Source: a bacterium (GTDB taxonomy: Bacteria > Patescibacteriota > Microgenomatia > Levybacterales > UBA12049). Taken from it: 64,000 nt of DNA. Each line of letters starts with the position of its first letter. Position 1 is the first letter of the stretch. The translations under genes were made by a program, and so were the position numbers. Positions 3,505 to 58,305 of this stretch are shown here, in pieces. The notes under the pieces were generated by a model. It had not been told where the DNA came from. It did no database searches and saw nothing but the letters and a program-made list of their open reading frames with translations. The stretch spans positions 5,082 to 69,081 of the forward strand of contig JAJYDJ010000002.1 of the NCBI GenBank assembly GCA_021777565.1, written 5' to 3'.

Positions 3505-4938
3505 CTATTTTCCAAGGTTTGCCAAGAGTGCTGCGTTGGTATCAAACTTCTCGAGTTGTTGGATAAACATCTCTGTTCTCTCATCATCAGGAAGCATAGA
3601 AAGCATACGATGCATCGTTGCCATACGGTTGAGAGTGTCTGCATCAAAGAATCTTCCTTCTTCACGAGTTCCTGATTTGTGAACATCAATAGCTGGGAAG
3701 ACGCGTCTTTCTGCCAATTGACGATTAAGATGCAGTTCCATGTTACCAGTTCCTTTGAATTCTTCATAAATCAGATCATCCATACGGGAGTTGGTATCCA
3801 CCAATGCAGTTGCGATGATGGTAAGACTGCCACCTTCCTGACAATTACGTGCGGCACCCAGGAATTTCTTAGATGGGAAGAGGGCTGCTGGATCAAATCC
3901 TCCAGAGAGTGTTCTCCCTGATGGTCCAACTGCCAAATTATACGCACGAGCAAGTCTGGTAATAGAATCCAAGAGAATAACGACGTCTTTGCCTTCCTCT
4001 ACCAAACGCTTTGCTCTCTCAAGAGCAATTTCTGCTACTTTGGTCTGGAATTCAGGAGCGGCATCAAAATTACTTGCAACGACTTCACCTTTGACAGACA
4101 TCGTGATATCAGTGACTTCTTCAGGGCGCTCCCCGATCAAAACCGCCATCAAATGTACTTCTGGAAAGTTGGTGGTGATGCCTGCTGCAATTTCTTTCAA
4201 CACTGTTGTCTTCCCTGCTTTTGGTGGTGAGACGATCATCCCGCGCTGGCCAAATCCAATTGGTGCCAACAGATCGATCATGCGGGTAGAAAGTGGCTGC
4301 TTGCCGGTTGTCAGCACAATTTGTCTGTTTGGATAAATTGGTGTTAACTCGTCAAAGTAAGGGCGCTGACCCATCTCGTCAGCCTGTTTGCCGTTAATTG
4401 TCTCTACTTTAAGAAGTCCAAAATAGCGTTCATTATCTTTTGGTGGACGAGCAATACCCCCGACCAAATCCCCTGCTCGCAGGTTAAATCGTCGTACTTG
4501 AGATTGGGATACGTATACATCTCGTGGTCCAGGAACGAATTTAGGACGCAAAAAGCCATGTCCTTCCTGCTGGAGCTCTAAAATGCCACTTACTGGCTCT
4601 GTTGGTCCGTCAGTGAGGTCATTACCGGTGCGAACTGGCTGGGGACGATAAAATCTTCCCTGACCTTGATTTTGTCCTTGTCCTTGGCCTTGTCCACGGT
4701 CACGATAGCCATAGCCACCACCACGAGGGGCATAGCCACGATTATTACTATAATGTGGTCTCTGATACCCACCCTGTTGAGGCTGCATATCGCCAAAATC
4801 GCTTTCCTGGGAGTAATTATTCCCTTGTGCTGGCTCTTGTGGCATAGATTCTGGTGCTTCAGGTGCCTGCTGTGGTGCCTGTTGAGGCTCCACTGGCTGA
4901 CCCACGAAATCATCAGCTGAAAAATGTTGATCATTCAT
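3505..4938 (-). CDS. rho: Transcription termination factor Rho with an RGG/QG-rich N-terminal extension
   Basis: Rho RNA-binding and ATPase motifs are present (GILELQQEGHGFLR, GQRGMIVSPPKAGKTT, RecA-like core). The N-terminal roughly 110 aa is low-complexity (RGGGYGYRDRGQGQGQGQNQGQGR). Confidence 0.9.
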   Translation of the reverse strand: MNDQHFSADDFVGQPVEPQQAPQQAPEAPESMPQEPAQGNNYSQESDFGDMQPQQGGYQRPHYSNNRGYAPRGGGYGYRDRGQGQGQGQNQGQGRFYRPQPVRTGNDLTDGPTEPVSGILELQQEGHGFLRPKFVPGPRDVYVSQSQVRRFNLRAGDLVGGIARPPKDNERYFGLLKVETINGKQADEMGQRPYFDELTPIYPNRQIVLTTGKQPLSTRMIDLLAPIGFGQRGMIVSPPKAGKTTVLKEIAAGITTNFPEVHLMAVLIGERPEEVTDITMSVKGEVVASNFDAAPEFQTKVAEIALERAKRLVEEGKDVVILLDSITRLARAYNLAVGPSGRTLSGGFDPAALFPSKKFLGAARNCQEGGSLTIIATALVDTNSRMDDLIYEEFKGTGNMELHLNRQLAERRVFPAIDVHKSGTREEGRFFDADTLNRMATMHRMLSMLPDDERTEMFIQQLEKFDTNAALLANLGK

Positions 4939-7082: not shown

Positions 7083-10000
7083 TCAATTTTCAACACTCAC
7101 TGCCGTCCATGAGAATGGTACTGGACTAGTGACTGTTTTATTGAGCTGTATGGTAAAGCCATGAGGGGAGATTTGGGTCAAGGTATATCGTATGTCCCCC
7201 GAGACAATAGCTTGCGTGACGTCACTCCCTACCGATGCATCAAGGGCGATATTGGCGGTAATAACTGGTGTTGCCTGGTAGTCTTTGGAGAAGGTGATAC
7301 TCACATGATCACTTCCTGCTGGGATAGAGACCATACCTGCATGATCTCGGTTTACAAAAATATCTCCTAGCAAATGCGTATTGCCATGGATCACAGCATC
7401 GCCCATAAAGGTCGCGAGACTTGTGACAATGGAGTTCGTCGCAGTGAGTGTGTCAACAACCTGGAGCATCCCCTCTACGAGGGCATTTTGTTTCACTCGA
7501 AGACTTCCTGAAACCGTTGCAGTTCCACTGTCAGAAGAGAGCGTAAGCGCACCAGAATCACTGGCGCTGGTACTCAAGCCAAGCACTGCTGATTGGGTAG
7601 AAGTTCCAAAGAGTGATTCAAGAAGCGACAAGCGAGCAGACAGAGATGCCAACTGCTCATCAACGCCGTCAATGTGGTCAGCATGAATTTCAGCCGCGCG
7701 CAATACTCCAGAGAACGTTGCATCTGACTGCACGGCCAACTGATCTGTCAAAATGCGTGGGGTAATAATCTCAAGACCAGCAGTAAGCCTATCGGTAGTG
7801 AGCTCTGAGAGGGTTGCTGAGTTGGTAGCCACGGGATGGCTCATCAAGTAGCTCAGTGCTTGCTGACCAGCAGTCACAGGATTGGCATCAAGACCTGGGA
7901 TAGACTGTGCCAATGTTTGCCCAGTAGTAAAACTGTTTTTAACAAATGCTACCACGTAGCCTGGCATATCAGGATCAGTATAAGCAGTGAGCGCCTGACC
8001 TATGATACTGCCTGATTTAAGTGCTTTCATAGCAACTCCAGGGGTTGAGGATGGGGTAAGATAATCCCCTGGCAAAATCTCCCCATTTTCCATCGAAACC
8101 TTCACAGGGACACGACCACTCAAGGCTACAAGTACGGTTTTGGCTCCCTGGATATTGCCATCACCGATAATGAGTCCTGGTTGAGTTGAGACAATACCAA
8201 GCGTATTTCTATCATATGCCCCACTACTTCGCATAACCCCAGCTGACAAACTCGCATCAATTGAGACAATTTCTCCTGGCATCAAGGTCGTATCATTGGT
8301 GTTATACATTTCAGCAACGTCAGCTCCTGTTCCCATCAATGTTCTTACGCGTACATATCCTGCCCCACCATTACCACCTGCACCACCAGTGGTTGTTTCC
8401 CCAGCTCCACCACCGCCTCCTCCGCCACCACGAGCACCACCGTTGCCTCCGGCACCACCAGTCCCAGATGGATTAACGGCACCACCACCACCTCCATCTC
8501 CGCCACTGCCGACTCCATCCGCACCGACACCTCCTGGCCCTCCAGCACCACTTCCGGCTGATCCACCGCCTCCACCCGTACCAGGGACGTGCCCTCCGGC
8601 ACCACCAGATCGCTGGGTACAAGTAGTCACGGCACAAGAGGCACCAGCACCACCACCAGCACCACCTTGGATACTTCCTCCACCGTTTCCTCCGTTGCCG
8701 GCTCCGTTAGTCGATGATCCACCTCCGCCTCCACCACCATACGCACCACTGCCCCCTACACCAGGAGTTCCTGTCGTTGCGGTACGACCACCAGCGCCAC
8801 CAAAGCCTGAGTTATCAGTGCTTGCCGCAGCACCAAGCGGGCCACCGCCAGCACCACCAGTGTTGGTTGTAGAGTTAGCCCCAACAGCATTATTTCCTCC
8901 TCCACCTCCACCACCACCAAAGCTCGTTGTTGTGCCTCCTGCTGAACCTCCACCTCCACCAAAGGCTTCTTCATACATTGTCCCAGCACAGTTAGCACTG
9001 GTACTAAAACAGCTTGGCCCACCAGCACTGCCTGCCGTGCCGGCAGCTGAACTACCTCCATTTCCATGATTTCCTCCAGAACCCACCGTAACAGCGACTG
9101 TGCTTCCCAGAGATGAACCCGAGATCTGTGTCGTGGAGTATGCACCACCACCACCACCAGCACCACCAAGCTCGATAGTGGATGTGCTTCCTCCAGCGCC
9201 GCCACCACCACCGCCACCACCACCCCAAACCTCAACAATGACCATTAAGGCGTTGGCAGGTTTGGTCCACGTACCACTCGCGGTAAATGTTTGGGTATTA
9301 GTATCACCACATGCGCTCAAGGAGAGGGTGCCAGAGCCATTAGATTGCAAACATCCTGCGGCATCGGCAGTAGGAAGTGTCCAGGTGTAGCTCCCGGCTG
9401 TTGCGCCAGCCTGAAGAGTAACTGTGTTGGCATTGGCACTGTCATTAAAGACAATATTCCCTGTTGCGCTGCTTGCTGCCCCAAGACTTATTTTTCCCGA
9501 GCCAACCGCTATGCCAGTGTCCCATCCCGTACCAATTGAGATAGCGGTATTGCCACCGTTGGAAGTGGTAATGGATCCAATAGTAATGCCGTTCATCGTC
9601 CCACCACTCGTTGTTGTCGCAGGTGGAGTTATCAGAAGACCATTCACAGTGCCAGCACCCACTGCCGTTAGACTGATACCTACTCCCGTCTGTGTCCCTG
9701 AGGTGGTAATGGTGCCTGTGGTAAGGGAAACTCCTGTTGCATTAGCAGCAGTCGTATTGGCAAGTGTCCCTGAAATTCCTGTTGCGGCGATGGTTCCTAA
9801 GTTAATGTCTGTTCCAATCGTCCCAGCAAAGCTCAACCCGTTGGTGAGTGTTCCAGTAGTCTGGCTAATTTGGATGCCGTTGGTTGTTGTGCCGCCACTG
9901 CCATTTACGTTGACTAACAATCCATTGGTCATGGTATTACTGGTATGCGTCAGACTGAGGGCAAGAGCGGTATTGGTTCCACTGGCAGGAGCACTCGTAG

Positions 10001-10916
10001 AACCAAAGGTGAAGTTGGTTCTGCCTGCGGTTGATGGTGCCCAGTTCCACACAATGGCGTTATCTGCGTTGGAAAGAGTTGAGGTTCCTGTTGCAGCAGT
10101 CAAACCACTCAAACTTGCACTCCCTGCTCCACCACACCCGCTACAAGAAGCAACTGTGAGTGCACCAGACTTTGAAATCTTCCATGACCCTCCAGTGCCA
10201 ACAATGTCATTTAAGTTGGTTCCGGTTGCACCTGAGAGATTGAACTGTAACCCGGTCTGATCAAAGGCACCCGTCCCAGAAAGTGTAATAGACTGACCAA
10301 CCAGCGCCGCTGTCTGAGTTGTACTGTCAGAAATACCAAGCACGGTTCCTGACGCCTGACTTGGCGCAATGGATTGAGTGAGTGCATTGCTGGTCAGAAT
10401 TGTCCCACTGTTGGTAGTTGGCAAGCTGTAACTGTTGCCCGATGTTCCTGAGAAGTTAATACCATCCACCGTATCTGAGTTAAAGGCATACGGCACCGCA
10501 GAAAGCCTGATACGTGGGGTCATTTCTGCATCGCTGCCAACCTTGATGCCCAGATACCACGTGTCCTGACTAAAATCGACTGATCCAGGAAGTGCAGTCG
10601 TAGCACCAAGAGGTACTTGGAAGATCCCGTTGACTGTCGCCACGGTATCAGTCTCTGTCCAGGTCGCCGACCCTCCGCTTGAGACGGTATAGATACTAAA
10701 GACGACACTGTAGTTCCCATCTGTCACGTTCGTCCCATCTGCGTTGGTCAGCTTCCCTTGAAAGCTTATTTGCTTATTAATGCCACTGGCAGCAAAAGTT
10801 CTTTGGAGAGAGAAAATAGAGGCCGAAAAGAGAGCGATCATCAAGAGCGCGATAAGTGTGATCCTTTTCACGCGTTTCACAGACAGTTTGGCTTGATAAC
10901 TAAGTGTTTTTCTCAT
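7083..10916 (-). CDS. Giant secreted glycine-rich surface protein (1277 aa) with a beta-rich C-terminal domain reminiscent of phage tail-fibre or adhesin tips
   Basis: Signal peptide (LIALLMIALFSASIFS...AFA). Roughly 330-aa central poly-Gly tract (GGGGGGGGAGG...). The C-terminal 450 aa is rich in Thr/Ser beta-strand repeats. The antisense poly-Pro ORFs are artefacts of this tract. Confidence 0.7.
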   Translation of the reverse strand: MRKTLSYQAKLSVKRVKRITLIALLMIALFSASIFSLQRTFAASGINKQISFQGKLTNADGTNVTDGNYSVVFSIYTVSSGGSATWTETDTVATVNGIFQVPLGATTALPGSVDFSQDTWYLGIKVGSDAEMTPRIRLSAVPYAFNSDTVDGINFSGTSGNSYSLPTTNSGTILTSNALTQSIAPSQASGTVLGISDSTTQTAALVGQSITLSGTGAFDQTGLQFNLSGATGTNLNDIVGTGGSWKISKSGALTVASCSGCGGAGSASLSGLTAATGTSTLSNADNAIVWNWAPSTAGRTNFTFGSTSAPASGTNTALALSLTHTSNTMTNGLLVNVNGSGGTTTNGIQISQTTGTLTNGLSFAGTIGTDINLGTIAATGISGTLANTTAANATGVSLTTGTITTSGTQTGVGISLTAVGAGTVNGLLITPPATTTSGGTMNGITIGSITTSNGGNTAISIGTGWDTGIAVGSGKISLGAASSATGNIVFNDSANANTVTLQAGATAGSYTWTLPTADAAGCLQSNGSGTLSLSACGDTNTQTFTASGTWTKPANALMVIVEVWGGGGGGGGGAGGSTSTIELGGAGGGGGAYSTTQISGSSLGSTVAVTVGSGGNHGNGGSSAAGTAGSAGGPSCFSTSANCAGTMYEEAFGGGGGSAGGTTTSFGGGGGGGGNNAVGANSTTNTGGAGGGPLGAAASTDNSGFGGAGGRTATTGTPGVGGSGAYGGGGGGGSSTNGAGNGGNGGGSIQGGAGGGAGASCAVTTCTQRSGGAGGHVPGTGGGGGSAGSGAGGPGGVGADGVGSGGDGGGGGAVNPSGTGGAGGNGGARGGGGGGGGAGETTTGGAGGNGGAGYVRVRTLMGTGADVAEMYNTNDTTLMPGEIVSIDASLSAGVMRSSGAYDRNTLGIVSTQPGLIIGDGNIQGAKTVLVALSGRVPVKVSMENGEILPGDYLTPSSTPGVAMKALKSGSIIGQALTAYTDPDMPGYVVAFVKNSFTTGQTLAQSIPGLDANPVTAGQQALSYLMSHPVATNSATLSELTTDRLTAGLEIITPRILTDQLAVQSDATFSGVLRAAEIHADHIDGVDEQLASLSARLSLLESLFGTSTQSAVLGLSTSASDSGALTLSSDSGTATVSGSLRVKQNALVEGMLQVVDTLTATNSIVTSLATFMGDAVIHGNTHLLGDIFVNRDHAGMVSIPAGSDHVSITFSKDYQATPVITANIALDASVGSDVTQAIVSGDIRYTLTQISPHGFTIQLNKTVTSPVPFSWTAVSVEN

Positions 10917-11047: not shown

Positions 11048-11323
11048 ATGCAGAATTTGCTTACCGTCTCACAAGTAGCTGCCATACTTCACATTCACCC
11101 ACTCAGTGTTCGTCGCTATATTACGCAGGGCAAGCTCCAAGCTATCAAGATCGCCGGCAATATTCGTATCCCCCAGGAAAATTTACAGGCACTTGAAAGG
11201 CAAGCGGCACCCAGACAAGAAAGACCATCACAATCTCCCTCCCGTCTTCTTCTGCATGTCTTTCGCGACAGTGATCCCCTTTTTCGACTGGAAGGAAGAG
11301 GAGCAAAACCATCAGAAAAATGA
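11048..11323 (+). CDS. Excisionase/MerR-like HTH DNA-binding protein (candidate antitoxin)
   Basis: N-terminal LTVSQVAAILHIHPLSVRRYITQGKL is an HTH_17/excisionase-type motif. It sits directly upstream of a PIN-like ORF. Confidence 0.5.
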   Translation: MQNLLTVSQVAAILHIHPLSVRRYITQGKLQAIKIAGNIRIPQENLQALERQAAPRQERPSQSPSRLLLHVFRDSDPLFRLEGRGAKPSEK

Positions 11324-11373: not shown

Positions 11374-11790
11374 ATGACAAAGAAAGTATTCCTCGCTGCC
11401 GATATGTTAGTCGCTTTTGTGGACCGTATGCACCCACAACATCTGCATGCCAAAACCCTCATGCATTATTTTGCCAGTGAACACTTTGCCTTGTTCACCA
11501 CTCCAACAATCCTTGATCATGCCTATACCCAAATCGCTCAGGATATCAGTGTGTCACTCGCCCGCGAGCTCCTGGATAGTTTTGCTAAGACTGAGGTTAA
11601 TATGCTCTTTCCCGATGACAAAGATTTGGCACATACCTATGAACTGGTCACCAACAGTCCAACTCTTGAGATAACGTTTACTGATGCGCTGCAAGCTACC
11701 TTGTGTGTAAGAAATCACATCCCTTCTATCGCGACCTTCTCCTATATCCACCCGTACCTTGGCATGAGCGCATTCTATTTACCGGTATGA
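11374..11790 (+). CDS. PIN-domain (VapC-like) protein, candidate toxin
   Basis: VFLAADMLVAFVD at the N-terminus and TFTDALQATLCV...IATFS near the C-terminus fit a PIN acidic-residue topology. This is a weak call. Confidence 0.45.
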   Translation: MTKKVFLAADMLVAFVDRMHPQHLHAKTLMHYFASEHFALFTTPTILDHAYTQIAQDISVSLARELLDSFAKTEVNMLFPDDKDLAHTYELVTNSPTLEITFTDALQATLCVRNHIPSIATFSYIHPYLGMSAFYLPV

Positions 11791-12824
11791 AGCACGTTAT
11801 TGCACTAACTATACTATTATATATAGGGGCTCTCACACCCTCACTTGCGCAGGCAGCAAATCCGGCAAGCACGAACTACGCGATACAAAGCTACAGCGTG
11901 GGTTCGGGTGGACTGGGAACAGGAAGCTCTGCAAGCTATAAACTCAACGGGATACTGGGTCCTCTGTCCGGGAACACCTCCTCAACTTCTTATGCATCCA
12001 AGAATGGGCTTTCTTTTTTACAAACCGTCAGTGTACCCCCAGCGCCAACCCTCACCAATCCAAATAACTATTACAATAAGTTATCACTAACGCTTGCGAC
12101 AGGTGGCAACCCAACTGACACCATGTATGCCATTGCCATTTCTCCCGATAATTTTAGTACCACAAAATATGTCCAATCCGATGACACACTCGGCAGTTCT
12201 CCTGTCTGGCAGACCAATACACTTTGGGGAGCCTCTGGATTTACCCTCATTGGGCTTACTCCTGGCACCACATACAGTGTGAAAGTGACAGCCAAGCAAG
12301 GAAATTTTTCACAAAGTCCTTTTGGGCCAGTGGCAACTGCTGCGACAGTTACGCCAAGTTTTACCTTTAGTCTCTCTACCAACGCGGTTGGGCTAGGACA
12401 ACTTACTCCTGGGACCGTAATTACCGCACCAACGACGGTGACGACAACCGTTAGCACAAATACCAATGCTGGTGCACAAGTGGTAATTTATGATAAAAAC
12501 AATGGACTTCTCAGTAGCGGCACCAACTACACGATCAACTCAGTGAGTAATAACCTCGCAACAACAACCGAAGGATATGGCGTGCGAGGTAAGACTGTGA
12601 CCCAGACCAGTGGTGGGCCTCTTGAAATACTCTCCCCGTTTAACGGCAGTGGGAATATCGTTGGGCAAGTGGCAACGACCAAACAAGTTCTTTTTGATTC
12701 TTCAGGGGCGGCAATAACCAATGGACAAGGAACCTTTGAGATTCAAGCGAAAGCAGGAAGCGGTGCCAAAGCGGCTACTGATTATTCTGATATTTTAACT
12801 GTGGTGGCCTCAGGTGTTTTTTAA
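11787..12824 (+). CDS. Secreted beta-rich surface protein, paralog A, with a conserved C-terminal YSD-x-LTV motif
   Basis: Sec signal (MKHVIALTILLYIGALTPSLAQA). The C-terminus AATDYSDILTVVASGVF parallels the next ORF. The start is taken at the internal Met because the track ORF overlaps the upstream gene. Confidence 0.6.
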   Translation: MKHVIALTILLYIGALTPSLAQAANPASTNYAIQSYSVGSGGLGTGSSASYKLNGILGPLSGNTSSTSYASKNGLSFLQTVSVPPAPTLTNPNNYYNKLSLTLATGGNPTDTMYAIAISPDNFSTTKYVQSDDTLGSSPVWQTNTLWGASGFTLIGLTPGTTYSVKVTAKQGNFSQSPFGPVATAATVTPSFTFSLSTNAVGLGQLTPGTVITAPTTVTTTVSTNTNAGAQVVIYDKNNGLLSSGTNYTINSVSNNLATTTEGYGVRGKTVTQTSGGPLEILSPFNGSGNIVGQVATTKQVLFDSSGAAITNGQGTFEIQAKAGSGAKAATDYSDILTVVASGVF

Positions 12825-12897
12825 AAAATTTCAGTGTTATATTTCAGACAACAGAAACTCTTGACAAGTCAAATCAATCTATGTGTATACTAAGTAT

Positions 12898-13926
12898 ATG
12901 ATCCGTTTTGGGAACAAAAAACAGTTTACTCGAGCTCTCATGGCCACACTTTTAATGGTTGGTCTCTATGAGCAAACCCTTCTGAGTAGTGCGCACGCAG
13001 CTGCGGCATCAGGATATATTCGACTTGATCGTTTAGGTACCTCTGCTGTTGGTGGTGCACTCGTCTGTATGACACCACAAACAACGGCAACTGAAGGCAA
13101 AGTCGTCCTCACCTTCCCTGGAACTGGGTCAGCAGGGTCAGCAAGTTTTGGCGTAGCTGCGGCAGGATCATGGACGACAACGACAACTGGCATTCCATCA
13201 GGGACAAGCGCATGGAGTGTCTCTTCTCCTGTTGTTTCAACCAACACGGTGACTTTTACCAGTCCTGACCTTACTGTTGGGACAACCTATTGTTTCATCG
13301 TTACGGGGAATGCCCTCACCAATCCATCCTCTGCTGCGTCGGGTAACACCTTAACTGGCAGTATTCAGACTCAAACATCAGGCGCATCAGCTATCGATAC
13401 CGTGAATAACGCCTATGCCATTATTTCAAACGATCAAATTTCTGTTACCGCAGCTGTTCCACAGTCCTTCACCTTTTCACTGGGATCAAATGCCGCAGCA
13501 CTTGGGACGTTGACCCTCGGCAGTACTATTAGCTCATCAGGTATTGTTTTGACCGCAATCACAAACGCACAACAAGGATGGCAAGCATGGGTTAAGAGTA
13601 CCAATGGCGCACTGAGTTCTGCAGGCACGGGTGGTTCTATCACATCTGCTCAAGCTGATCTTTCCAGTGCATCCAATGGCTATGGACTTGTCGTAAGTGC
13701 CACCGCTGGAAATGCCGTTGCTGATGCTTCAACGTATGCCCTCGGGGGCACAACAGTAGGTTCACTGGCCACTACCTACAAAAGGCTTGGATACTACTCT
13801 TCTGGTCCATCAGCTACTTCAGGGGATCAACTGACGCTTACGGTAAAAGCAAAAGCTGATTCTTCAATCAAGGCCGCAAGTGACTACAGTGACACACTCA
13901 CCGTCACTGGTGCAGGTTCATTCTAA
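12898..13926 (+). CDS. Secreted beta-rich surface protein, paralog B
   Basis: Signal peptide. C-terminus AASDYSDTLTVTGAGSF. Shares internal FN3-like strands with paralog A (PGTTYSVKVT vs VGTTYCFIVT). Confidence 0.6.
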   Translation: MIRFGNKKQFTRALMATLLMVGLYEQTLLSSAHAAAASGYIRLDRLGTSAVGGALVCMTPQTTATEGKVVLTFPGTGSAGSASFGVAAAGSWTTTTTGIPSGTSAWSVSSPVVSTNTVTFTSPDLTVGTTYCFIVTGNALTNPSSAASGNTLTGSIQTQTSGASAIDTVNNAYAIISNDQISVTAAVPQSFTFSLGSNAAALGTLTLGSTISSSGIVLTAITNAQQGWQAWVKSTNGALSSAGTGGSITSAQADLSSASNGYGLVVSATAGNAVADASTYALGGTTVGSLATTYKRLGYYSSGPSATSGDQLTLTVKAKADSSIKAASDYSDTLTVTGAGSF

Positions 13927-14993
13927 TGACACGACATACCGCTAAACTGTGCTGCCCAGCATATATCCGTTTCCTTTTTTGCGTGCTTATCGGGGCTGTC
14001 ATCGTGAGCATGTTTGCTCACCACACATATGCGGCAGAACCATTTAACATCACCTCCTCCCCAACTTCATTTGATCTGAGTGGGCAACCAGGAGGAACGA
14101 TAACCCAGATGGTAAAAATCAGAAACAATGCAAGTACTCCAGTGACCCTCCAATTTAGTATTAAAAAACTGATTGCAGGAGCCAAAGGAGATATTTCACT
14201 CACTGACTTTGGTCCTACAGATACGTATCAACATTGGTTAACTTTCCAAACAGCCAGTGCTACCGCTAGCCCCAACGACTGGGTAGAGATGCCATTTACC
14301 ATTCATATTCCAACAGATGCCAGTCTTGGGTATTATTTCGCTCTTTATATTGCTCCACTTGATACTCCAGGCACTGCCCAAGAACCAGCCGCTCATCTGA
14401 ATGGATCTGTTGCTATTCCAGTACTCTTAAGTGTACGAAGTGGCAAAGTGAGTATCTCTGGAGCCATCAACTCCTTTACTACCAGCCCCTTTTCTGAGTA
14501 TTTGCCAGTCAATTTCGATCTGACCTATCACAATACAAGTAATATTCATGTTCGCCCACGAGGAGACATCTTTATTAAAGATGCGACCGGGAAAGAAGTC
14601 GCTATTCTCCCGATTAACCCCAGTGCCAGCAGTGTAATTCCTGGCATGACAAAAGACTTTATGATTCCCTGGGATGACAGTTTTATTACCCAGGAGACTG
14701 TCATGCAAAATGACATGATTGTGTATGACAGCTCCCATCATCCCCGAACCCATTTGGTTTTCCATTTCGACAGACTTCTGCACATGCGCATCGGGAGATA
14801 TACTGCCACGGCTCTGGTAGTGGTACCTGGAGACACACAAGATTATTCTTACGAAAGTAGCACCAGCTTTTGGATTATCCCATGGGAGATACTTACTGGG
14901 GCACTTCTTTTGGCAACATTTACACTTGCTGGGATATTCTTTACTATAAAAGGAGCTGTCCAGACGACCCATCGCCTGATACAACACCGCTAA
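13926..14993 (+). CDS. Cell-surface protein with an N-terminal signal and C-terminal TM anchor (DUF916/DUF3324-like architecture)
   Basis: PFNITSSPTSFDLSGQPGGTITQMVKIRNNAS has a beta-sandwich flavour. C-terminal TM (LLLATFTLAGIFFTI) followed by a basic tail. Confidence 0.5.
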   Translation: MTRHTAKLCCPAYIRFLFCVLIGAVIVSMFAHHTYAAEPFNITSSPTSFDLSGQPGGTITQMVKIRNNASTPVTLQFSIKKLIAGAKGDISLTDFGPTDTYQHWLTFQTASATASPNDWVEMPFTIHIPTDASLGYYFALYIAPLDTPGTAQEPAAHLNGSVAIPVLLSVRSGKVSISGAINSFTTSPFSEYLPVNFDLTYHNTSNIHVRPRGDIFIKDATGKEVAILPINPSASSVIPGMTKDFMIPWDDSFITQETVMQNDMIVYDSSHHPRTHLVFHFDRLLHMRIGRYTATALVVVPGDTQDYSYESSTSFWIIPWEILTGALLLATFTLAGIFFTIKGAVQTTHRLIQHR

Positions 14994-15000
14994 TATCAGT

Positions 15001-15882
15001 ATGAAACGATATCTGCTCCTCGCGTCATTTGTGTGTTTAGCTTTACTTATCACGCCTCGTGCCTTTGCACAAGCAGGTATTACTGTTGCTCCCGCGTTCG
15101 TCTCCTTAGATTTGTCCAACAATAAACCATCAAGCACGGTCTCCTACACGAATGGCTACACATACCCTGTTCGTGTCAACATATCAGTAGATCAATCCTA
15201 TGATCTGGCAAATCCAGAACCGATTGCTCCATCCAAGTGGATATCATACAATCCTACCTCCTTTGTCCTTCGCCCAGGGGAAACACAAAAAGTACTTCTT
15301 ACTTTTGCACCAAATAAGCTAAGTCCGGGGGGGCATTTTGCAAACTTGCTTGCACAAATTCAGTACAGTGGCGCACCAACCGGACAAATACAACTTCAGG
15401 CAATCATAGCCACTAGTATTGCTCTTCGCACTCACACTGGCAACGAGCATGATCAAGCTTCAATAGTTTCTCTATCACCTATTTCAGCCTTTTGGAAGTT
15501 TCCTGCAGAATTCCAACTTGTTATGAAAAACAATGGGAATACCTTGGTCATCCCCTATGGCAAACTAGACCTTTCAACCAGAGACACTACTTTGATTGCC
15601 CGTGGGATACTTAACACTGGATCACTCGTACTCTTCCCGGGAGCGACTCGTTCCTTTACCATTCCCTCACAAAATGTTACATCAACCATCTGGCCTGGGG
15701 TGTATCACGCAACACTTACCGTGCATTATAGTGATAGCAATCAGGTCCTCACCAGACAGATAACCTTTTTCTCTTTTGGGACGTTTCCTATTAGAAGAGT
15801 GCTAGCGGTACTTGGTGGGATTGGTGTCCTTTGTGTAGCTTTTTTTGCATATTTTAGAGTTCGCGAAAAGCAATCACATTAA
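15001..15882 (+). CDS. Second signal-plus-C-terminal-TM-anchored surface protein (paralogous architecture to 13926..14993)
   Basis: MKRYLLLASFVCLALLITPRAFAQA signal. ITVAPAFVSLDLSNN...VRVNIS. C-terminal TM LAVLGGIGVLCVAFFAYF followed by REKQSH. Confidence 0.5.
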   Translation: MKRYLLLASFVCLALLITPRAFAQAGITVAPAFVSLDLSNNKPSSTVSYTNGYTYPVRVNISVDQSYDLANPEPIAPSKWISYNPTSFVLRPGETQKVLLTFAPNKLSPGGHFANLLAQIQYSGAPTGQIQLQAIIATSIALRTHTGNEHDQASIVSLSPISAFWKFPAEFQLVMKNNGNTLVIPYGKLDLSTRDTTLIARGILNTGSLVLFPGATRSFTIPSQNVTSTIWPGVYHATLTVHYSDSNQVLTRQITFFSFGTFPIRRVLAVLGGIGVLCVAFFAYFRVREKQSH

Positions 15883-15886
15883 TTGT

Positions 15887-16450
15887 TCATTTTATTACGA
15901 TCGAGTCTTTAATTCGATTAAAAATAATGTCCATTTTTTCACTATTTTCCCCTGAGATAACGATACTATAAACATTTTCGTCCTGGAGAACAAACCATGA
16001 TCTTTCACCATCTGGTGGATTCTTTGAGAACGTGTATGCAGTGCTCCCCATTGCTCGAGTGGCATAGCTGGGATTTATTTTTCGCATATCGACAGCTGGA
16101 TCACCGGTGATATCTGACAGTCCAGGCCTTTTGGTAACACTTATCTGTCCATCAATATGAAAGATGTTATCGAAGAAATGTACGTTCTCAAGAAGCAGCC
16201 CTGACGGAGATGCACTGACAGAGAGAGATGCCCATGCAGGATACACAAAGGTCACATACTTCCCATGGTAAGTATCATAGATATTCGTATCAACTGGCGT
16301 TAATTGTGGTTCCCGCCCCAAAATTTGTTTATAAACATCCATTTTCTCTTGAGACGTGAGGCGGGCTTTGGGAGAATTCTCATATCGAGTGACGAGGATC
16401 ACACCAACTGCCAAACAAATCCCACCAATACCAACGATCCACCAGCGCAT
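15887..16450 (-). CDS. Hypothetical protein with an N-terminal TM helix
   Basis: ORF with an N-terminal TM segment. Opposite orientation to the flanking surface-protein genes. Confidence 0.4.
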   Translation of the reverse strand: MRWWIVGIGGICLAVGVILVTRYENSPKARLTSQEKMDVYKQILGREPQLTPVDTNIYDTYHGKYVTFVYPAWASLSVSASPSGLLLENVHFFDNIFHIDGQISVTKRPGLSDITGDPAVDMRKINPSYATRAMGSTAYTFSKNPPDGERSWFVLQDENVYSIVISGENSEKMDIIFNRIKDSIVIK

Positions 16451-16500
16451 ACGTTTTTATCATACGCAATACGCACTATATTTGCTATGCTAGAGATAGC

Positions 16501-18549
16501 ATGAAGAAAATCATTCTCTGCCTCATAACCCTTGCTATTTCACTCTTTATTGCGGGGCAACAACTCCTTTTTGCAGACCAGACTATTACGGTCACTGGCA
16601 CTGTCCCTCCACAAACAAAAGATTTTACCTTTTCACTGACCCCAGCGACTACCACATCTACCGTAGCTCAAAACACGACACTGGCATATACCCTAAGCTA
16701 TGGATCACTTGCATCCTCTGGACAAACGACAACAGTTACACTGACAGCGACCTACACGACACAGGCAAGTGCAGGAGTAGATTTGCTTGAGTATGTGCCG
16801 GGGAGTGCAACCACTGGATATAACGGGGCAACACCTGTCATTAATTTGTTAAATCACACAATTACGTGGCAAGTTTCACTTCCCGCTGGCAAAACACAAT
16901 CGGTCAGCTTTAGTGTCAGAACAAACAGTAACTATACTGGCTCAACTGCGCAGGCATTAACTATTCATGCAACCGCTGCAAACCAGTTCTTTACCTTTGG
17001 TGATTTGACTGATACCAAGTCCTATGTGTACACCCGTCAATATACGCTTACTGCTGCGAGAACTGCGCCAACGACAACACCTACTCCCCAACCCCAGCAA
17101 TCACAACCATCCGTAACACCATCACCTATTCCTCCAACTGGGACAAAAGCCACCTCCCCAACCCCCGTCATATCAGTAACACCACTACCAATTCAGACAT
17201 CCTTGCCGCTGGCATTTACTTCCTTTGACATTGCCGGGGTAACAAGTAACACCATAACTATCGAAGCAAAGACCAATTATCCTACCATTGCAACCCTTGC
17301 CTATGGGACAAGCTCACGTGTACTTACTGCGTCAGTTAGCGATAGTGCAGTATCTACCACACACACTCTCACTCTCTCAGGACTCACGGCGCACACACCG
17401 TATTACTTTAAAGTCCAGGCAGGAGGTAAGTCCTCCGATTTATTAAGCGCCATGACTGCTGAAACGAGTGTCCCCCAACAGGTTGCGCCACTGACTGTTA
17501 CATTTGCGAGCGAGAACTTAACGCTTTCAAGCGTACAATCGACAACAGGACAAATCTCTTCGTCAACCAACCCTTCTGTTCCACAAGCCTCTCCCACTCC
17601 TCCAGTCGTCGTACTCCCTGTGCAACATCCATTTCAGGTAAGTTTTGAGGTCACACAAAAAACACCTATCGTCTCTATTATTGGCATTCTAAAGAATAAA
17701 CACGTGCTTGGGATTAATACATTTGCATATGATGCCGGTGACGAGACACAGGTCCCCGTTATTGAGAAAGCGCCAGGTGTCTATTCGCTGAATCTCACTA
17801 CACCACCTGCTCCTGGGTTGTATGAACTACAAGTACAAATTTTAGATACTGCAGGGAATGTCACTCGCACCCCTGTAGGAACAGTAAATGTTACCCATCC
17901 TTTGCTTGTTGAAGACGAAGCAACGAATAACCCAGTCAATGCACGCGTGCTCTTTTATCGAAGAGATTATCTCAGAAATGCATACATCAGACTCGCTACC
18001 ACATTTGAAGATGCGATGAACCCGGCGTTTACCGATGCACATGGAGAGATAGTAAGTGTCCTTCCACCTGGTGACTATCGAGCTGATGTTTCCAGCCTTG
18101 GCTATGATCAAAAAACGGTTTATTTTACTATTGGCGGAGAGCAAAGCACCCAATATCCAACCATAAAACTACATAAAAATATTCTGGGACTGAGTAATTA
18201 TCTTTCCTACCTCAAAAATGGCCTTACCGATACGATGGAAGCTTTTACTGTTTTCAAAACACTCATAGCCTCCTCACGAAGACTTCTAGATGATATAACG
18301 ATTATTTTAATAATACTTCTCCTCATAACTATCGTGACTACTTGTATTAAAAGATGTATACCACAGAAGAAACTTCCACATTTTGCCCATCTTACAATGA
18401 TGATACTTTCTATGATTTTTGATTTCATACTGCTTACACTAGGAGTGCTCCTTCTAATCTATATCACTTCTATGGGTTTTATAGTAGTGCTAGTACCTTC
18501 AGTTCTCTTTCTTGTAATACTTATTGTCTGGGTGCTACGGGAGTATTAA
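16501..18549 (+). CDS. Large surface protein with FN3-like and carboxypeptidase-regulatory-like beta domains and C-terminal TM helices
   Basis: Signal peptide. Pro/Thr linker. FN3-like strand (TAHTPYYFKVQAGG). CarbopepD_reg-like segment (ARVLFYRRD...HGEIVSVLPPGDYRADVSSLGYD). Three C-terminal TM segments. Confidence 0.55.
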   Translation: MKKIILCLITLAISLFIAGQQLLFADQTITVTGTVPPQTKDFTFSLTPATTTSTVAQNTTLAYTLSYGSLASSGQTTTVTLTATYTTQASAGVDLLEYVPGSATTGYNGATPVINLLNHTITWQVSLPAGKTQSVSFSVRTNSNYTGSTAQALTIHATAANQFFTFGDLTDTKSYVYTRQYTLTAARTAPTTTPTPQPQQSQPSVTPSPIPPTGTKATSPTPVISVTPLPIQTSLPLAFTSFDIAGVTSNTITIEAKTNYPTIATLAYGTSSRVLTASVSDSAVSTTHTLTLSGLTAHTPYYFKVQAGGKSSDLLSAMTAETSVPQQVAPLTVTFASENLTLSSVQSTTGQISSSTNPSVPQASPTPPVVVLPVQHPFQVSFEVTQKTPIVSIIGILKNKHVLGINTFAYDAGDETQVPVIEKAPGVYSLNLTTPPAPGLYELQVQILDTAGNVTRTPVGTVNVTHPLLVEDEATNNPVNARVLFYRRDYLRNAYIRLATTFEDAMNPAFTDAHGEIVSVLPPGDYRADVSSLGYDQKTVYFTIGGEQSTQYPTIKLHKNILGLSNYLSYLKNGLTDTMEAFTVFKTLIASSRRLLDDITIILIILLLITIVTTCIKRCIPQKKLPHFAHLTMMILSMIFDFILLTLGVLLLIYITSMGFIVVLVPSVLFLVILIVWVLREY

Positions 18550-21797: not shown

Positions 21798-21920
21798 AAT
21801 GCTCGGCCTTGACGTATTGTCCCGTCCCCGAAGGGAGAGTATCGTCCGCGCTGGCGCGTTTCACGACTTTGTTCGGAATGGAAAAAGGTGGTTCCACGCC
21901 GCTCCAAAGACCGAACATTC
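21798..21920 (-). rRNA. rrf: 5S rRNA (ends approximate; the flanking extended helix suggests a longer precursor)
   Basis: The reverse complement contains CCATTCCGAAC and GTGAAACGCGCCAGCGC...GATACT. The ends pair (ttgctgttgaatgttcgg / ccgagcattgagcagcaa). Confidence 0.55.
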
Positions 21921-22011
21921 AACAGCAAACTTATAAATGTGCTTGTCGTAAGCTCTTAAAAAGCGAAGAGAAAAGTAACGGTTTTTAAAACATGCGTTTT
22001 AAATCTACCAC

Positions 22012-24953
<2,942 letters not shown>

Positions 24954-25194
24954 GTAGATTTAAAAATTTATTGCATGTTAAAAAAACCTGCATTTTCTCT
25001 TCACTTTTTAAAGAGCTTACATATACTCATCTGGAACTAACCCTCCCTTGCTGGAGGGCTTGTTCCAAACAACATGTAAACATGTACGCCTTGGTGGACC
25101 GGAAGAGATTTCCCCCAAGGGGACTAGCTACTTCGTAGCGGCGTCCACAGGACTAGGGTCGCTGCCCGTCGCTTCTCATCTCTTCTGAGCAACC

Positions 25195-25270
25195 TGGTGG
25201 ACCGGAAGAGATTCGAACTCTCGACCTTCGCTATGCAAAAGCGACGCTCTACCAGCTAAGCTACCGGCCC
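25195..25270 (-). tRNA. tRNA-Ala (anticodon TGC), CCA encoded, upstream of 23S
   Basis: Acceptor gggccgg/ccggtcc with G3:U70. Anticodon stem tcgct/agcga with loop tttgcat. Genome-encoded CCA. Confidence 0.85.
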
Positions 25271-28195: not shown

Positions 28196-28495
28196 TAGTG
28201 ATGATGATAATTTAAGTTAAAATCTGGGGCGCGCAATTTTTGAGATTAAAACGCCTATCATAGGAGTGTAGAGACAAATTAAATATGTTAAGACTAAAAT
28301 TAACCATAATACTAAACTTCTTAATTATTCTGGATTGCTATGTCTTCCATGTAGGTAACGTTACACTGGATTACAAAGCATTATTACTAATTGCAATAAT
28401 AGTTGTCTTAGTACTTCCTTTTAAGGAATTTCATATCTGCTCATTATTTAGTGGGAAACTTTGGAAGAGTTAAGTAGCCTGTACTTTTTTGAGGG

Positions 28496-28568
28496 TGCGC
28501 CCGGGAGGACTCGGACCTCCGACGTGATGTGTATAAGACATCTGTTCTAGCCACTGAACTACGGGCGC
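28496..28568 (-). tRNA. tRNA-Ile (anticodon TAT, reads AUA)
   Basis: Cloverleaf has acceptor gcgcccg/cgggcgc, D gttc..gaac, anticodon stem gatgt/acatc with loop cttatac (U33 UAU A37). The T-loop is tccgagt, which is atypical. Confidence 0.7.
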
Positions 28569-28607
28569 AAAACTAGTGCCATTATACCTTTTTCAACCAC
28601 GACAATC

Positions 28608-31777: not shown

Positions 31778-31932
31778 AGATCCGGGGTTCAGATCCCGGT
31801 CGATCAGGGGAAACGTGGTGAAATTCCACGGCTGTGCCGCAACTGTAAAGCCAGACTGCCTGAATCTTTGCATTGTCCTCGAGCACAGGATGTACTGTCC
31901 AAGACCTTCTCGCTCAGCAGAAGGTTTTTTTG
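31778..31932 (+). promoter_or_regulatory. Cobalamin (AdoCbl/B12) riboswitch with a terminator expression platform
   Basis: Conserved core GGGAAACGTGGTGAAATTCCACGGCTGTGCCGCAACTGTAAAGCCAGACTGCCTGA (GGTGAAATTCC, CCGCAACTGT, B12-box-like AGCCAGACTGCC). It ends in hairpin ccttct/agaagg plus T7, 25 nt before the ATG at 31957. Confidence 0.75.
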
Positions 31933-31956
31933 TATCTAAGGCTTGAGGGAAAGCAT

Positions 31957-32526
31957 ATGTACAAAAAAATCTTTTCGCCACTGAGTGTTCTTGCGTTTGT
32001 CAGTTTTTTACTGGCAGGCAGCTCCTTCTATATTCTTAGTGCACATCCGAAAGTTCTTGAGGCGACGATCGAAAAAACCATTACGGTTACAACAACACCT
32101 GTCCCCACACAAGCTACCCAAACTATTACTGCTATTGCATCTGCGCCAACAAGTCTGCCCCAACCGACAACAACTCAGTCGACAACGACTATCGTGACGC
32201 AACATACCACCACCTCAACAACTGTCAGCCAGTCAGGTCCTTATGTCGCACTCAGCCTTCATGTCGGGAGTAATCTAACCACCTGGGCAGTAAGCCTCTC
32301 TGGCACCCAGACTCCTTGCTCTATTCTGCAAGCAGCCAAAGATCAAGGGAAACTCTCCTCGCTTACCATCCAGCACTACGGTGCTCCGCTCAACAGTGAT
32401 TACGTAAAAGAGATAAATGGCAATTCTGACAATTGGACATTTACGCTCAATGGAGACAGTAAAAACATGGGATGCTCTTACTATTCACTCAACTCAGGGG
32501 ATACTGTCGTCTGGAGTTATCAATAA
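31957..32526 (+). CDS. DUF4430-domain secreted protein (beta-domain homologous to transcobalamin / intrinsic factor; putative B12-binding)
   Basis: N-terminal TM/signal. C-terminal QAAKDQGKLSSLTIQHYGAPLNSDYVKEINGNSDNWTFTLNGDSKNMGCSYYSLNSGDTVVWSY is DUF4430-like. Immediately downstream of the B12 riboswitch. SD gaggga is correctly placed. Confidence 0.65.
   Translation: MYKKIFSPLSVLAFVSFLLAGSSFYILSAHPKVLEATIEKTITVTTTPVPTQATQTITAIASAPTSLPQPTTTQSTTTIVTQHTTTSTTVSQSGPYVALSLHVGSNLTTWAVSLSGTQTPCSILQAAKDQGKLSSLTIQHYGAPLNSDYVKEINGNSDNWTFTLNGDSKNMGCSYYSLNSGDTVVWSYQ

Positions 32527-58217: not shown

Positions 58218-58305
<88 letters not shown>

Follow-up and report, generated by a model that had tools for sequence, protein, structure and literature searches.

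What do five genes for secreted or membrane-anchored, β-rich proteins build at the surface of a Microgenomatia bacterium? The genes, here called A to E, lie in a stretch of 64,000 nucleotides (contig JAJYDJ010000002.1 of GenBank assembly GCA_021777565.1, positions 5,082 to 69,081 of the forward strand), the whole of which is referred to below as the window. A preliminary description had read them as a Csc/WxL-like cell-surface complex and possibly as an undescribed family. On the evidence presented here, the locus probably encodes a Pam-type pilus of the ultrasmall Candidate Phyla Radiation (CPR, or Patescibacteria) bacteria, an usher-less chaperone–subunit system with donor-strand exchange. 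In such a system A and B would be the pilins, C and D their chaperones, and E the terminator and anchor of the fibre.

Pam filaments of Ca. Mycosynbacter amalyticus, in which the pilins PamA and PamB were seen by cryo-electron microscopy (cryo-EM), were described in a preprint of March–June 2026 (Troman et al., bioRxiv 10.64898/2026.03.03.709456). According to the same preprint, the pam operon also encodes PapD/FimC-like chaperones (PamC and PamD) that unusually carry a C-terminal transmembrane (TM) helix, further pilins (PamE and the tip protein PamT), and PamR, which is RbmA-like, has a strand at its N-terminus and a TM helix at its C-terminus, and is proposed to end and anchor the fibre. 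Homologs were reported in Saccharimonadia and Microgenomatia, together with a 'tail fibre-like' conserved neighbor. By this description, the composition of the cluster in the window matches the pam operon gene for gene. Given the preprint and a PamT model in NCBIfam, the family can no longer be called undescribed; what is new here is a Microgenomatia locus of the recently described Pam kind, with variations of its own.

The proposed pilins A and B share a C-terminal domain with a conserved tail

A and B had been presented as two secreted paralogs. They are indeed paralogous, but only in their C-terminal halves (40 per cent identity over 166 amino acids, E-value 2e-23), the N-terminal halves being unrelated. 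A hydropathy scan found an N-terminal hydrophobic segment in A; the signal peptide of B is weaker, with an h-region under the 1.6 cut-off. Alignment and an AlphaFold2 (AF2) model of A (predicted local distance difference test [pLDDT] of 83.9) divide this protein into a signal peptide, a 50-residue segment, an Fn3-like domain, a strand, and a C-terminal domain of about 150 residues; residues 22–76 have a pLDDT below 50 and are predicted to be disordered. More than 200 homologs of A were found, none of them named.

Relatives of A were collected in a scan of one genome per species with a 16-sequence query alignment, which gave 135 relatives, and 80 loci were kept. A tail motif, DYx[DE]x[LIVF]T, lies within the last 18 residues of 149 of the 162 members of the pilin family (82 loci), and 157 of the 162 end in phenylalanine. 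The near-identical C-terminal motif to which the preliminary description had drawn attention is thus borne out across the family, and it is not due to chance. An aromatic C-terminus fits a free C-terminal strand that a chaperone recognizes, as happens with chaperone-usher pilins.

The NCBIfam model NF058579 ('CPR-type pilus protein PamT') matches residues 6–75 of A (E-value 3.7e-7, or 3.4e-5 once the signal peptide is removed). Three conserved S-x-[NS]-Y-x repeats, at residues 28, 48, and 66 of A, are common to this model and could possibly serve as additional donor strands, form a tip for adhesion, or be glycosylated. None of the NCBIfam models matched B, C, D, or E, and an NCBIfam scan of Saccharimonadia-type loci again gave only PamT matches at the N-terminus. 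Foldseek with the model of A returned mostly Fn3 domains, plus the chaperone-usher subunits CsuE (rank 6) and CfaB. When the Protein Data Bank (PDB) was searched with A and with C as single sequences, nothing beyond weak Fn3 matches and noise came up. A has no cysteine and B has two, so that at most one disulphide can form.

The tail had also been likened to the WxL domain, and this comparison failed. Pfam WxL (PF13731) matched 0 of 39 pilin family members, and a profile of the pilin C-terminal domain had no match in the PDB, the WxL chains of 9i25 included. We assembled a Firmicutes reference set from plasmid records, consisting of nine WxL clusters with nine WxLIPs and 17 WxL domains. Against the 17 authentic WxL domains, hhalign scored the pilin C-terminal domain at 0.2 per cent and its Saccharibacteria-type counterpart at 3 per cent. 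By eye, TNAxxGWxAWV and DYSDTLTV resemble the WxL motifs D.RG..GWxLxV and YxxTLTWxL, and in two independent comparisons hhalign aligned TNAxxGWxAWV with the first WxL motif, with scores that are not significant. At the level of sequence, A and B appear to have no detectable WxL domain.

C and D are relatives of WxLIP/DUF916 proteins

The preliminary description of C and D as anchored paralogs with a signal peptide, β-domains, and a C-terminal TM segment was confirmed. Their paralogy is weak but real (27 per cent identity over 153 amino acids, E-value 1e-7), and D aligns through the whole C family. In its AF2 model (pLDDT 85.9), C has two β-domains and a C-terminal helix. Hydropathy scanning revealed signal-like N-terminal hydrophobic segments in C, D, and also E, and a C-terminal hydrophobic segment is present in 126 of 131 members of the chaperone family. 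A word-indexed search found 18 close relatives of C, and an exhaustive profile search found 16,537 representative proteins at an E-value of 1e-3 or less.

A DUF916/DUF3324-like organization had been proposed for these two proteins, of which the DUF916 part stood and the DUF3324 part was not detectable by sequence. Pfam WxLIP_PGBD (PF06030) matches 9 of the 18 family members, with a best E-value of 2e-7; the window's own C reaches 17.9 bits (E-value 0.0033), under the gathering score of 27.3. DUF3324 (PF11797) matched 0 of the same 18 members in the Pfam scan. When the PDB was searched with a profile of the C/D family, the chains of EfmWxLIP1 from E. faecium were the only sequence-level match (E-value 2.6e-6), and no chaperone-usher chaperone was matched. 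With the signal peptide and TM helix removed, hhalign scored C/D against the nine Firmicutes WxLIPs at 94.2 per cent (E-value 1.1e-7). The score was 96.2 per cent (E-value 2.3e-9) for the N-domain alone and 3.5 per cent for the second domain alone, against 0.1–0.3 per cent for mismatched control pairs. The full-length comparison (98.1 per cent, E-value 1.3e-13) is inflated by the signal peptide and the TM helix, and the trimmed values are preferred. A conserved N-terminal [YS]FDL strand is common to C/D and WxLIP, and the Saccharibacteria branch of the C family is labelled DUF916 by both NCBI and Pfam.

Foldseek against the PDB with the model of C placed 9i25_C ('WxLIP from Enterococcus faecium locus A bound to long WxL', E-value 1.1e-10) and 9i1y (WxLIP alone) at the top. 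The chaperone-usher chaperones CfaA, CsuC, YadV, and CupB2 followed (E-values 3e-9 to 1e-6), and generic proteins with two immunoglobulin-like (Ig) domains (CEP192, RbmA, and C5a peptidase) were also returned. The alignment to the 251-residue chain 9i25_C has 280 columns and therefore extends into both domains. Judging from the AF2 model, the second domain of C and D would resemble that of WxLIP only at the level of structure. The profile, hhalign, and Foldseek evidence together establish that C and D are true relatives of the WxLIP/DUF916 proteins and have their overall layout in common with them. For such proteins, PMC10599100 reports an AF2 prediction in which a strand of DUF916 inserts into the WxL domain.

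A strand motif is common to the pilins and the putative anchor E

The linker strand of B (DQISVTAAVPQSFTFSL) resembles the start of E just after its signal peptide (DQTITVTGTVPPQTKDFTFSL). We counted this strand pattern with the regular expression [IVL][STAV][IV][TSN][AG][TSAQ][VI]..P in the predicted open reading frames (ORFs). It is present in the linker of 59 of the 162 pilins and in 6 of 10 E-like proteins, where it invariably comes right after the signal peptide, versus 7 of 2505 other ORFs (Fisher's test, P = 1e-12). A 20-column hidden Markov model of the linker strand had no statistical power. Among the 7 other ORFs, 5 are small secreted ORFs just downstream of chaperones.

Small secreted ORFs of 122–243 amino acids with I-T-V-T-A-T-V-P after the signal peptide were seen in loci L001/L009 (4164-4532), L020 (14796-15428), L035 (15565-16296), and L064 (10093-10710). 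They may be minimal terminator subunits in loci without an E-like gene. In Levyibacteria-type loci, E-like genes follow the chaperone genes. That E carries the strand motif without an acceptor domain is what is expected of the last subunit in a chain of donated strands.

E had been described as a 682-residue anchored protein of FN3 and carboxypeptidase-regulatory-like character. Its anchoring was upheld, and the domain matches are sub-threshold only. The hydropathy scan placed TM segments at residues 598–616 and 661–679, and a third hydrophobic stretch between them was recognized by eye. As far as its sequence indicates, the P/T/S/Q-rich spacer of E together with these segments would suit a wall-spanning tether.

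The cluster is conserved across CPR bacteria

Synteny of the chaperone genes was counted over the 51 loci with at least 2.5 kb of sequence downstream. At least one chaperone gene is present in 50 of them, at least two in 48, and three in 18, so that the co-occurrence across related genomes, suggested as a check by the preliminary description, was found. Relatives of D are the second or third chaperone in 48 of the 51. The order pilin–pilin–chaperone–chaperone is kept in 48 of these 51 CPR loci, across several CPR classes, and 70 of the 80 loci have two or three pilin genes. All relatives that carry an organism name are CPR bacteria (Levyibacteriota, Moraniibacteriota, Andersenbacteria, Saccharimonadia, and Paceibacteria), and the nearest are from Candidatus Levyibacteriota. 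Many records of metagenome-assembled genomes with the operon (L004, L010, L012–L015, and others) are titled uncultured Bdellovibrionales, Pseudomonadales, or Gammaproteobacteria; these titles are probably automatic mislabels of CPR bins.

Saccharibacteria loci with DUF916 relatives of C have a different arrangement, in which a giant gene is followed by a chaperone gene, a gene for a pilin-like protein of about 350 amino acids, a second chaperone gene, and a gene for a Big-domain protein of about 450 amino acids with a C-terminal TM segment. The pilin-like proteins and 4 of 5 giants end in AGTYTTTVIYTAVPAY. In L082, L093, L094, and L096 (Saccharibacteria and related bacteria), giants of 1262–2682 amino acids lie just upstream of the chaperone–pilin–chaperone genes and have the tail ..AGxYxTTVIYTVTAxY, as in the adjacent pilins. 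These giants look like tip adhesins built on a pilin domain, and they recall 'large WxL' proteins. hhalign scored the window-type pilin C-terminal domain against the Saccharibacteria set at 97.2 per cent (E-value 3.5e-11) over 155 columns, from the linker strand to the C-terminus. Therefore, the pilins of the window and the Saccharibacteria subunits belong to one superfamily.

A proposed route of assembly

All five proteins would be exported by Sec, in keeping with their signal peptides. C and D would then be held in the membrane by their C-terminal helix and would cap the presumably incomplete C-terminal Ig-like domain of a pilin with a strand of their own. Fold and homology are observed for this step; the binding is proposed by comparison with WxLIP and its WxL partner and with PapD, CsuC, and CfaA and their subunits. 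An incoming pilin would displace the chaperone strand with its own linker strand ([IV]TVTA[TS]VP..F[TS]F[SD]L), and such displacement would lead to head-to-tail polymerization into a thin linear filament, by analogy with PamA and PamB as seen by cryo-EM. E would donate the last strand, stop growth, and tie the fibre to the membrane through its spacer and TM helices. A, with its PamT-like N-terminus, may perhaps sit distally. The fibre likely serves an episymbiotic, Levyibacteria-like member of the Microgenomatia in attaching to a host cell or surface.

Weighing the Pam-type pilus against other explanations

Several observations weigh against a Pam-type pilus. The PamT match reaches 29.8 bits where the cut-off is 240, and its extent is limited to about 50 mature residues of A. 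Fn3 domains dominate the Foldseek result for A, in which the matches to CsuE and CfaB are modest (E-values 5e-5 and 3e-4, TM-score about 0.25). The pairwise alignment of the start of E with the linker of B is not significant by itself (BLASTP, E-value 1.5), and E is recognizable in only 10 of the 82 loci. When Levyibacteria-type E proteins were compared with Saccharibacteria-type anchors, hhalign gave 1.3 per cent, and the anchor is therefore conserved in layout only. In the window, the antisense gene X separates E from A–D. Finally, no ATP synthase genes, the neighborhood reported for pam operons, were found among the ORFs from 2295 to 28112. The same region contains, on the reverse strand (3505-4938), a gene for the Rho termination factor with Rho_RNA_bind and ATP-synt_ab domains.

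The best-surviving alternative is a static surface complex of the WxL/Csc type, in which C and D tether A and B by strand insertion, no filament is formed, and A and B act as adhesins or wall-bound scaffolds. It would account for the finding that WxLIP is more similar to C and D than any chaperone-usher chaperone is, both by PDB profile and at the top of the Foldseek result, and for the C-terminal TM helix common to C/D and WxLIP. At least two subunit genes beside a gene for an anchored two-Ig protein also agree with the spirit of the WxL cluster definition in PMC10599100, and the Y-S-D-x-L-T-V tail and TNAxxGWxAW resemble two WxL motifs by eye. On the other hand, A and B are not detectable as WxL domains, and the linker motif recurs at the N-terminus of E and in the small secreted ORFs, which a chain of donated strands predicts and a one-to-one tether does not. 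Related CPR proteins have been seen as filaments by cryo-EM (bioRxiv 10.64898/2026.03.03.709456). The envelopes of CPR bacteria and Firmicutes differ, so that peptidoglycan binding is uncertain. We consider the static complex unlikely. The preliminary description had named a pilin-like fold of A and B, with anchored proteins outside DUF916/DUF3324, as the result that would speak against its own reading; the findings for A and B go part of the way in this direction, and the anchored proteins lie inside DUF916.

Much less probable still is a chance neighborhood of unrelated secreted Ig/Fn3 adhesins or S-layer-like proteins and membrane proteins, all with a generic β-sandwich likeness. All Pfam matches of the window's own proteins are under the gathering threshold, numerous two-Ig proteins of a generic kind (CEP192, RbmA, and C5a peptidase among them) came up in Foldseek with C, and final strands of the G-x-Y-x-x-T-L-T-V type are common in Ig-like domains. 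Such an assortment is at odds with the gene order kept in 48 of 51 loci over several CPR classes, with the specificity of the WxLIP profile–profile match relative to its controls, and with a strand motif common to different proteins of the cluster. The S-layer reading was rejected. A sortase-assembled Gram-positive-type pilus, with which a monoderm host and Ig-like domains in the subunits would agree, was rejected as well and has a negligible probability: the locus proteins have no LPXTG-like motif, no window ORF has a TLxTC signature, and the C-terminus of the pilins is a free F-COOH, with neither a hydrophobic nor a charged sorting tail.

Gene layout and surroundings

The features of the cluster and its neighbors are collected in Table 1. 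The preliminary description had counted five co-oriented genes. All five ORFs are as described, but they are not contiguous, as the antisense gene X had been missed. The start of C overlaps the stop of B by 1 nucleotide, and 7 nucleotides separate C from D. D and X are convergent, 4 nucleotides apart, and X and E diverge across 50 nucleotides; therefore, E cannot share a simple transcript with A–D. A promoter and terminator scan of the locus found sites no more numerous than in shuffled sequence.

Table 1. Cluster genes, domains within their products, and flanking genes, with positions in the window.
Feature	Nucleotides	Strand	Residues	Remarks
Giant Gly-rich fibre-like protein G	7083-10916	-		1277 aa; divergent neighbor of the cluster
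HTH_17/excisionase-type DNA-binding gene	11048-11323	+		HTH_17 E-value 2e-10; precedes the PIN-like gene
PIN-like gene	11374-11790	+		138 aa; directly upstream of pilin A
Pilin A	11787-12824	+		345 aa; from ORF list
A: PamT-like segment	11859-12014	+	25-76	follows the signal peptide; three SxNYx repeats
A: Fn3-like domain		+	~84-186	fn3 E-value 4e-4, under the Pfam gathering threshold
A: linker strand	12348-12377	+	~188-197	TPSFTFSL
A: C-terminal pilin domain		+	198-345	ends AATDYSDILTVVASGVF
Pilin B	12883-13926	+		347 aa; from ORF list
B: linker	~13432-13482	+	184-200	DQISVTAAVPQSFTFSL; follows the signal peptide and an N-terminal β-domain unrelated to that of A
B: C-terminal pilin domain	13873-13923 (tail)	+		TNAQQGWQAWV motif; tail AASDYSDTLTVTGAGSF
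Chaperone-like protein C	13926-14993	+		355 aa; from ORF list
C: DUF916/WxLIP_PGBD-like Ig domain		+	~42-170	follows the signal peptide
C: second β-domain		+	~179-317	
C: C-terminal TM helix	14883-14987	+	320-354	AF2; hydrophobic residues 317-340 by hydropathy scan
Chaperone-like protein D	15001-15882	+		293 aa; from ORF list; shorter paralog of C
D: C-terminal TM segment		+	267-285	hydropathy scan; signal peptide at the N-terminus
Gene X	15887-16450	-		187 aa; N-terminal TM segment and domain of ~160 aa
Putative terminator/anchor E	16501-18549	+		682 aa; from ORF list
E: pilin-linker-like strand	16576-16638	+	26-46	DQTITVTGTVPPQTKDFTFSL; follows the signal peptide
E: P/T/S/Q-rich spacer	17071-17220	+	~191-240	after β-sandwich domains
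E: Fn3-, Big_13-, and CarboxypepD_reg-like domains		+		after the spacer; sub-threshold Pfam matches only
E: about three C-terminal TM segments	18286-18540	+	~596-680	

Pfam and NCBIfam scans of gene X gave no match. Its homologs keep their place and orientation, antisense between D and E, in the Levyibacteria-type loci L004, L005, L008, L010, and L011, and the full order of the window (giant on the opposite strand, PIN-like gene, two pilins, two chaperones, X on the opposite strand, and E) is repeated in Levyibacteria-type loci.

Upstream, the start ATG of A overlaps the stop of the PIN-like gene by 4 nucleotides. This gene has a weak VapC/PIN match (E-value 0.012), and its homologs lie 3–15 nucleotides upstream of pilin A in L002, L005, L008, L010, and L060. 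Together with the preceding HTH_17 gene, it may form a regulator or toxin–antitoxin-like module tied to the pilus genes. A lone MazE-like antitoxin has been reported near the pam operon (Troman et al., bioRxiv 10.64898/2026.03.03.709456).

G, the divergent neighbor, has sub-threshold matches to Gly_rich_2, Bdello_MAT_N (fibre N-terminus, E-value 8.5e-7), and H_lectin (weak, at the C-terminus), and its coding region, with a long Gly-rich core, lifts the local GC content to 54 per cent. In 26 of the 82 loci, G-like proteins are encoded no more than 10 kb away from the pilins. Unlike the Saccharibacteria giants, the window's G has no pilin C-terminal domain. It probably corresponds to the 'tail fibre-like' neighbor of pam operons.

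Elsewhere, the window has a GC content of about 45 per cent and carries a tmRNA and ten tRNAs, for two of which ARAGORN reports unusual anticodons: tRNA-Ile with anticodon TAT (28493-28569, reverse strand) and tRNA-Ser with anticodon ACT (58218-58305, forward strand). Genes for 5S and 23S rRNA (21801-24961) and tRNA-Ala(TGC) (25195-25270) are on the reverse strand, with no 16S rRNA gene in the window, as in an unlinked rRNA operon. An AdoCbl-II (cobalamin) riboswitch (31791-31867, forward strand) exceeds the gathering score with 47.3 bits; the ORFs at 31873-32526 and 32472-34412 follow shortly downstream.

Wider significance

A large part of bacterial diversity is attributed to CPR bacteria, which are believed to live mostly attached to other cells, and this attachment is largely unexplained. 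The window's locus and the 80 related loci extend the Pam-type system to Levyibacteriota, Moraniibacteriota, Andersenbacteria, and Paceibacteria, with at least two pilin subtypes. They also provide a simple signature of the subunits, namely the linker strand motif combined with an invariant ...DYxDxLT......F-COOH tail.

The WxLIP/DUF916 homology of C and D links this newly found CPR organelle with the WxL clusters that occur in Enterococcus, Listeria, and Lactobacillus and are associated with virulence and adhesion by a mechanism that is not resolved, and for these clusters it suggests donor-strand complementation or exchange as a testable mechanism. WxL, DUF916, and DUF3324 go unmentioned in the Pam preprint (bioRxiv 10.64898/2026.03.03.709456). 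The available parts of two WxL papers of 2022 and 2023 (PMC9772566, PMC10599100) describe the insertion of a DUF916 strand and mention neither pili nor CPR bacteria. That Pam-type chaperones are homologous to WxLIP is thus unstated in these sources, to the extent that they were available; the link may be drawn elsewhere, for example, in the paper behind 9i25.

A bolder and more tentative idea, which we regard as possible but do not favor, is that Pam pili and WxL/Csc clusters are two branches of one ancient monoderm system. WxLIP, as the equivalent of PamC and PamD, would complement strand-deficient subunits, the pilin acceptor domain would have diverged into the WxL domain, and 'large WxL' proteins would correspond to the giant tip proteins with a pilin domain in Saccharibacteria. 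Good support exists for the chaperone side of the link, and its subunit side is conjectural. If the idea is true, then either the WxL proteins of enterococci, listeriae, and lactobacilli form short fibres by donor-strand exchange, or the Pam 'chaperones' double as tethers.

Comparison with known systems

The locus agrees with chaperone-usher systems, especially archaic (Csu) and class 5/alternative (CFA/I) ones, in the boomerang-type two-Ig chaperone fold, with CfaA, CsuC, YadV, and CupB2 high in the Foldseek result of C. It also agrees with them in the subunit matches to CsuE and CfaB, in the invariant C-terminal strand ending in an aromatic residue, and in the proposed donor-strand complementation and exchange. 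It differs in having no usher-sized β-barrel gene in the cluster, no outer membrane, and chaperones that are anchored in the membrane and have no detected sequence-level similarity to those of chaperone-usher systems. Moreover, the donor strand is an internal linker and not an N-terminal extension, and the subunits have an extra N-terminal domain. CPR bacteria are monoderm.

In Csc clusters, WxLIP is CscA (DUF916, DUF3324, and a TM helix), and the WxL proteins, the small and the large ones, are CscB and CscC, according to PMC9772566 and PMC10599100. The cluster in the window follows a parallel logic, and to this extent its likeness to csc clusters was rightly seen. At least two secreted subunit genes stand beside a gene for an anchored two-Ig protein; C and D agree with WxLIP in length (about 340–360 amino acids) and in the order of signal peptide, two Ig domains, and TM helix; and a Saccharibacteria giant with a C-terminal subunit domain is comparable to a 'large WxL' protein. 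The likeness does not extend to the subunit domain, which lacks Trp-x-Leu pairs and is negative by Pfam and hhalign, or to DUF3324, which is undetectable by sequence. There are two or three WxLIP-like genes per cluster versus the usual one, an LPXTG CscD-like protein is missing (no LPx[TSA]G in the locus), and the host is a CPR bacterium and not a Firmicute.

RbmA of Vibrio cholerae, the fold of PamR according to the preprint, can be compared with E, which has Fn3-like modules and would play the role of PamR. E differs from RbmA in its size of 682 amino acids, its P/T-rich spacer, its several TM segments, and its weak Fn3, Big_13, and CarboxypepD_reg matches; the RbmA match in Foldseek was to C and not to E.

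The closest system is the Pam pilus itself, from which the locus departs in several ways. It has two pilin genes instead of PamA, PamB, PamE, and PamT, and in A a full pilin domain is joined to an Fn3 domain and a PamT-like N-terminus. E greatly exceeds an RbmA-like two-Fn3 protein in size, has about three TM segments, and forms a separate transcription unit. Gene X and the upstream HTH and PIN-like pair are conserved here, and no ATP synthase is nearby. The pilins can form at most one disulphide (none in A), versus two to three pairs in PamA and PamB. What the two have in common is an operon with two anchored two-Ig chaperones that end in a TM helix, a multi-Ig protein anchored at its C-terminus and bearing a strand near its N-terminus (PamR and, in its putative role, E), a fibre-like giant neighbor (G), a match of the N-terminus of A to the PamT model, and a distribution restricted to CPR bacteria, Microgenomatia included.

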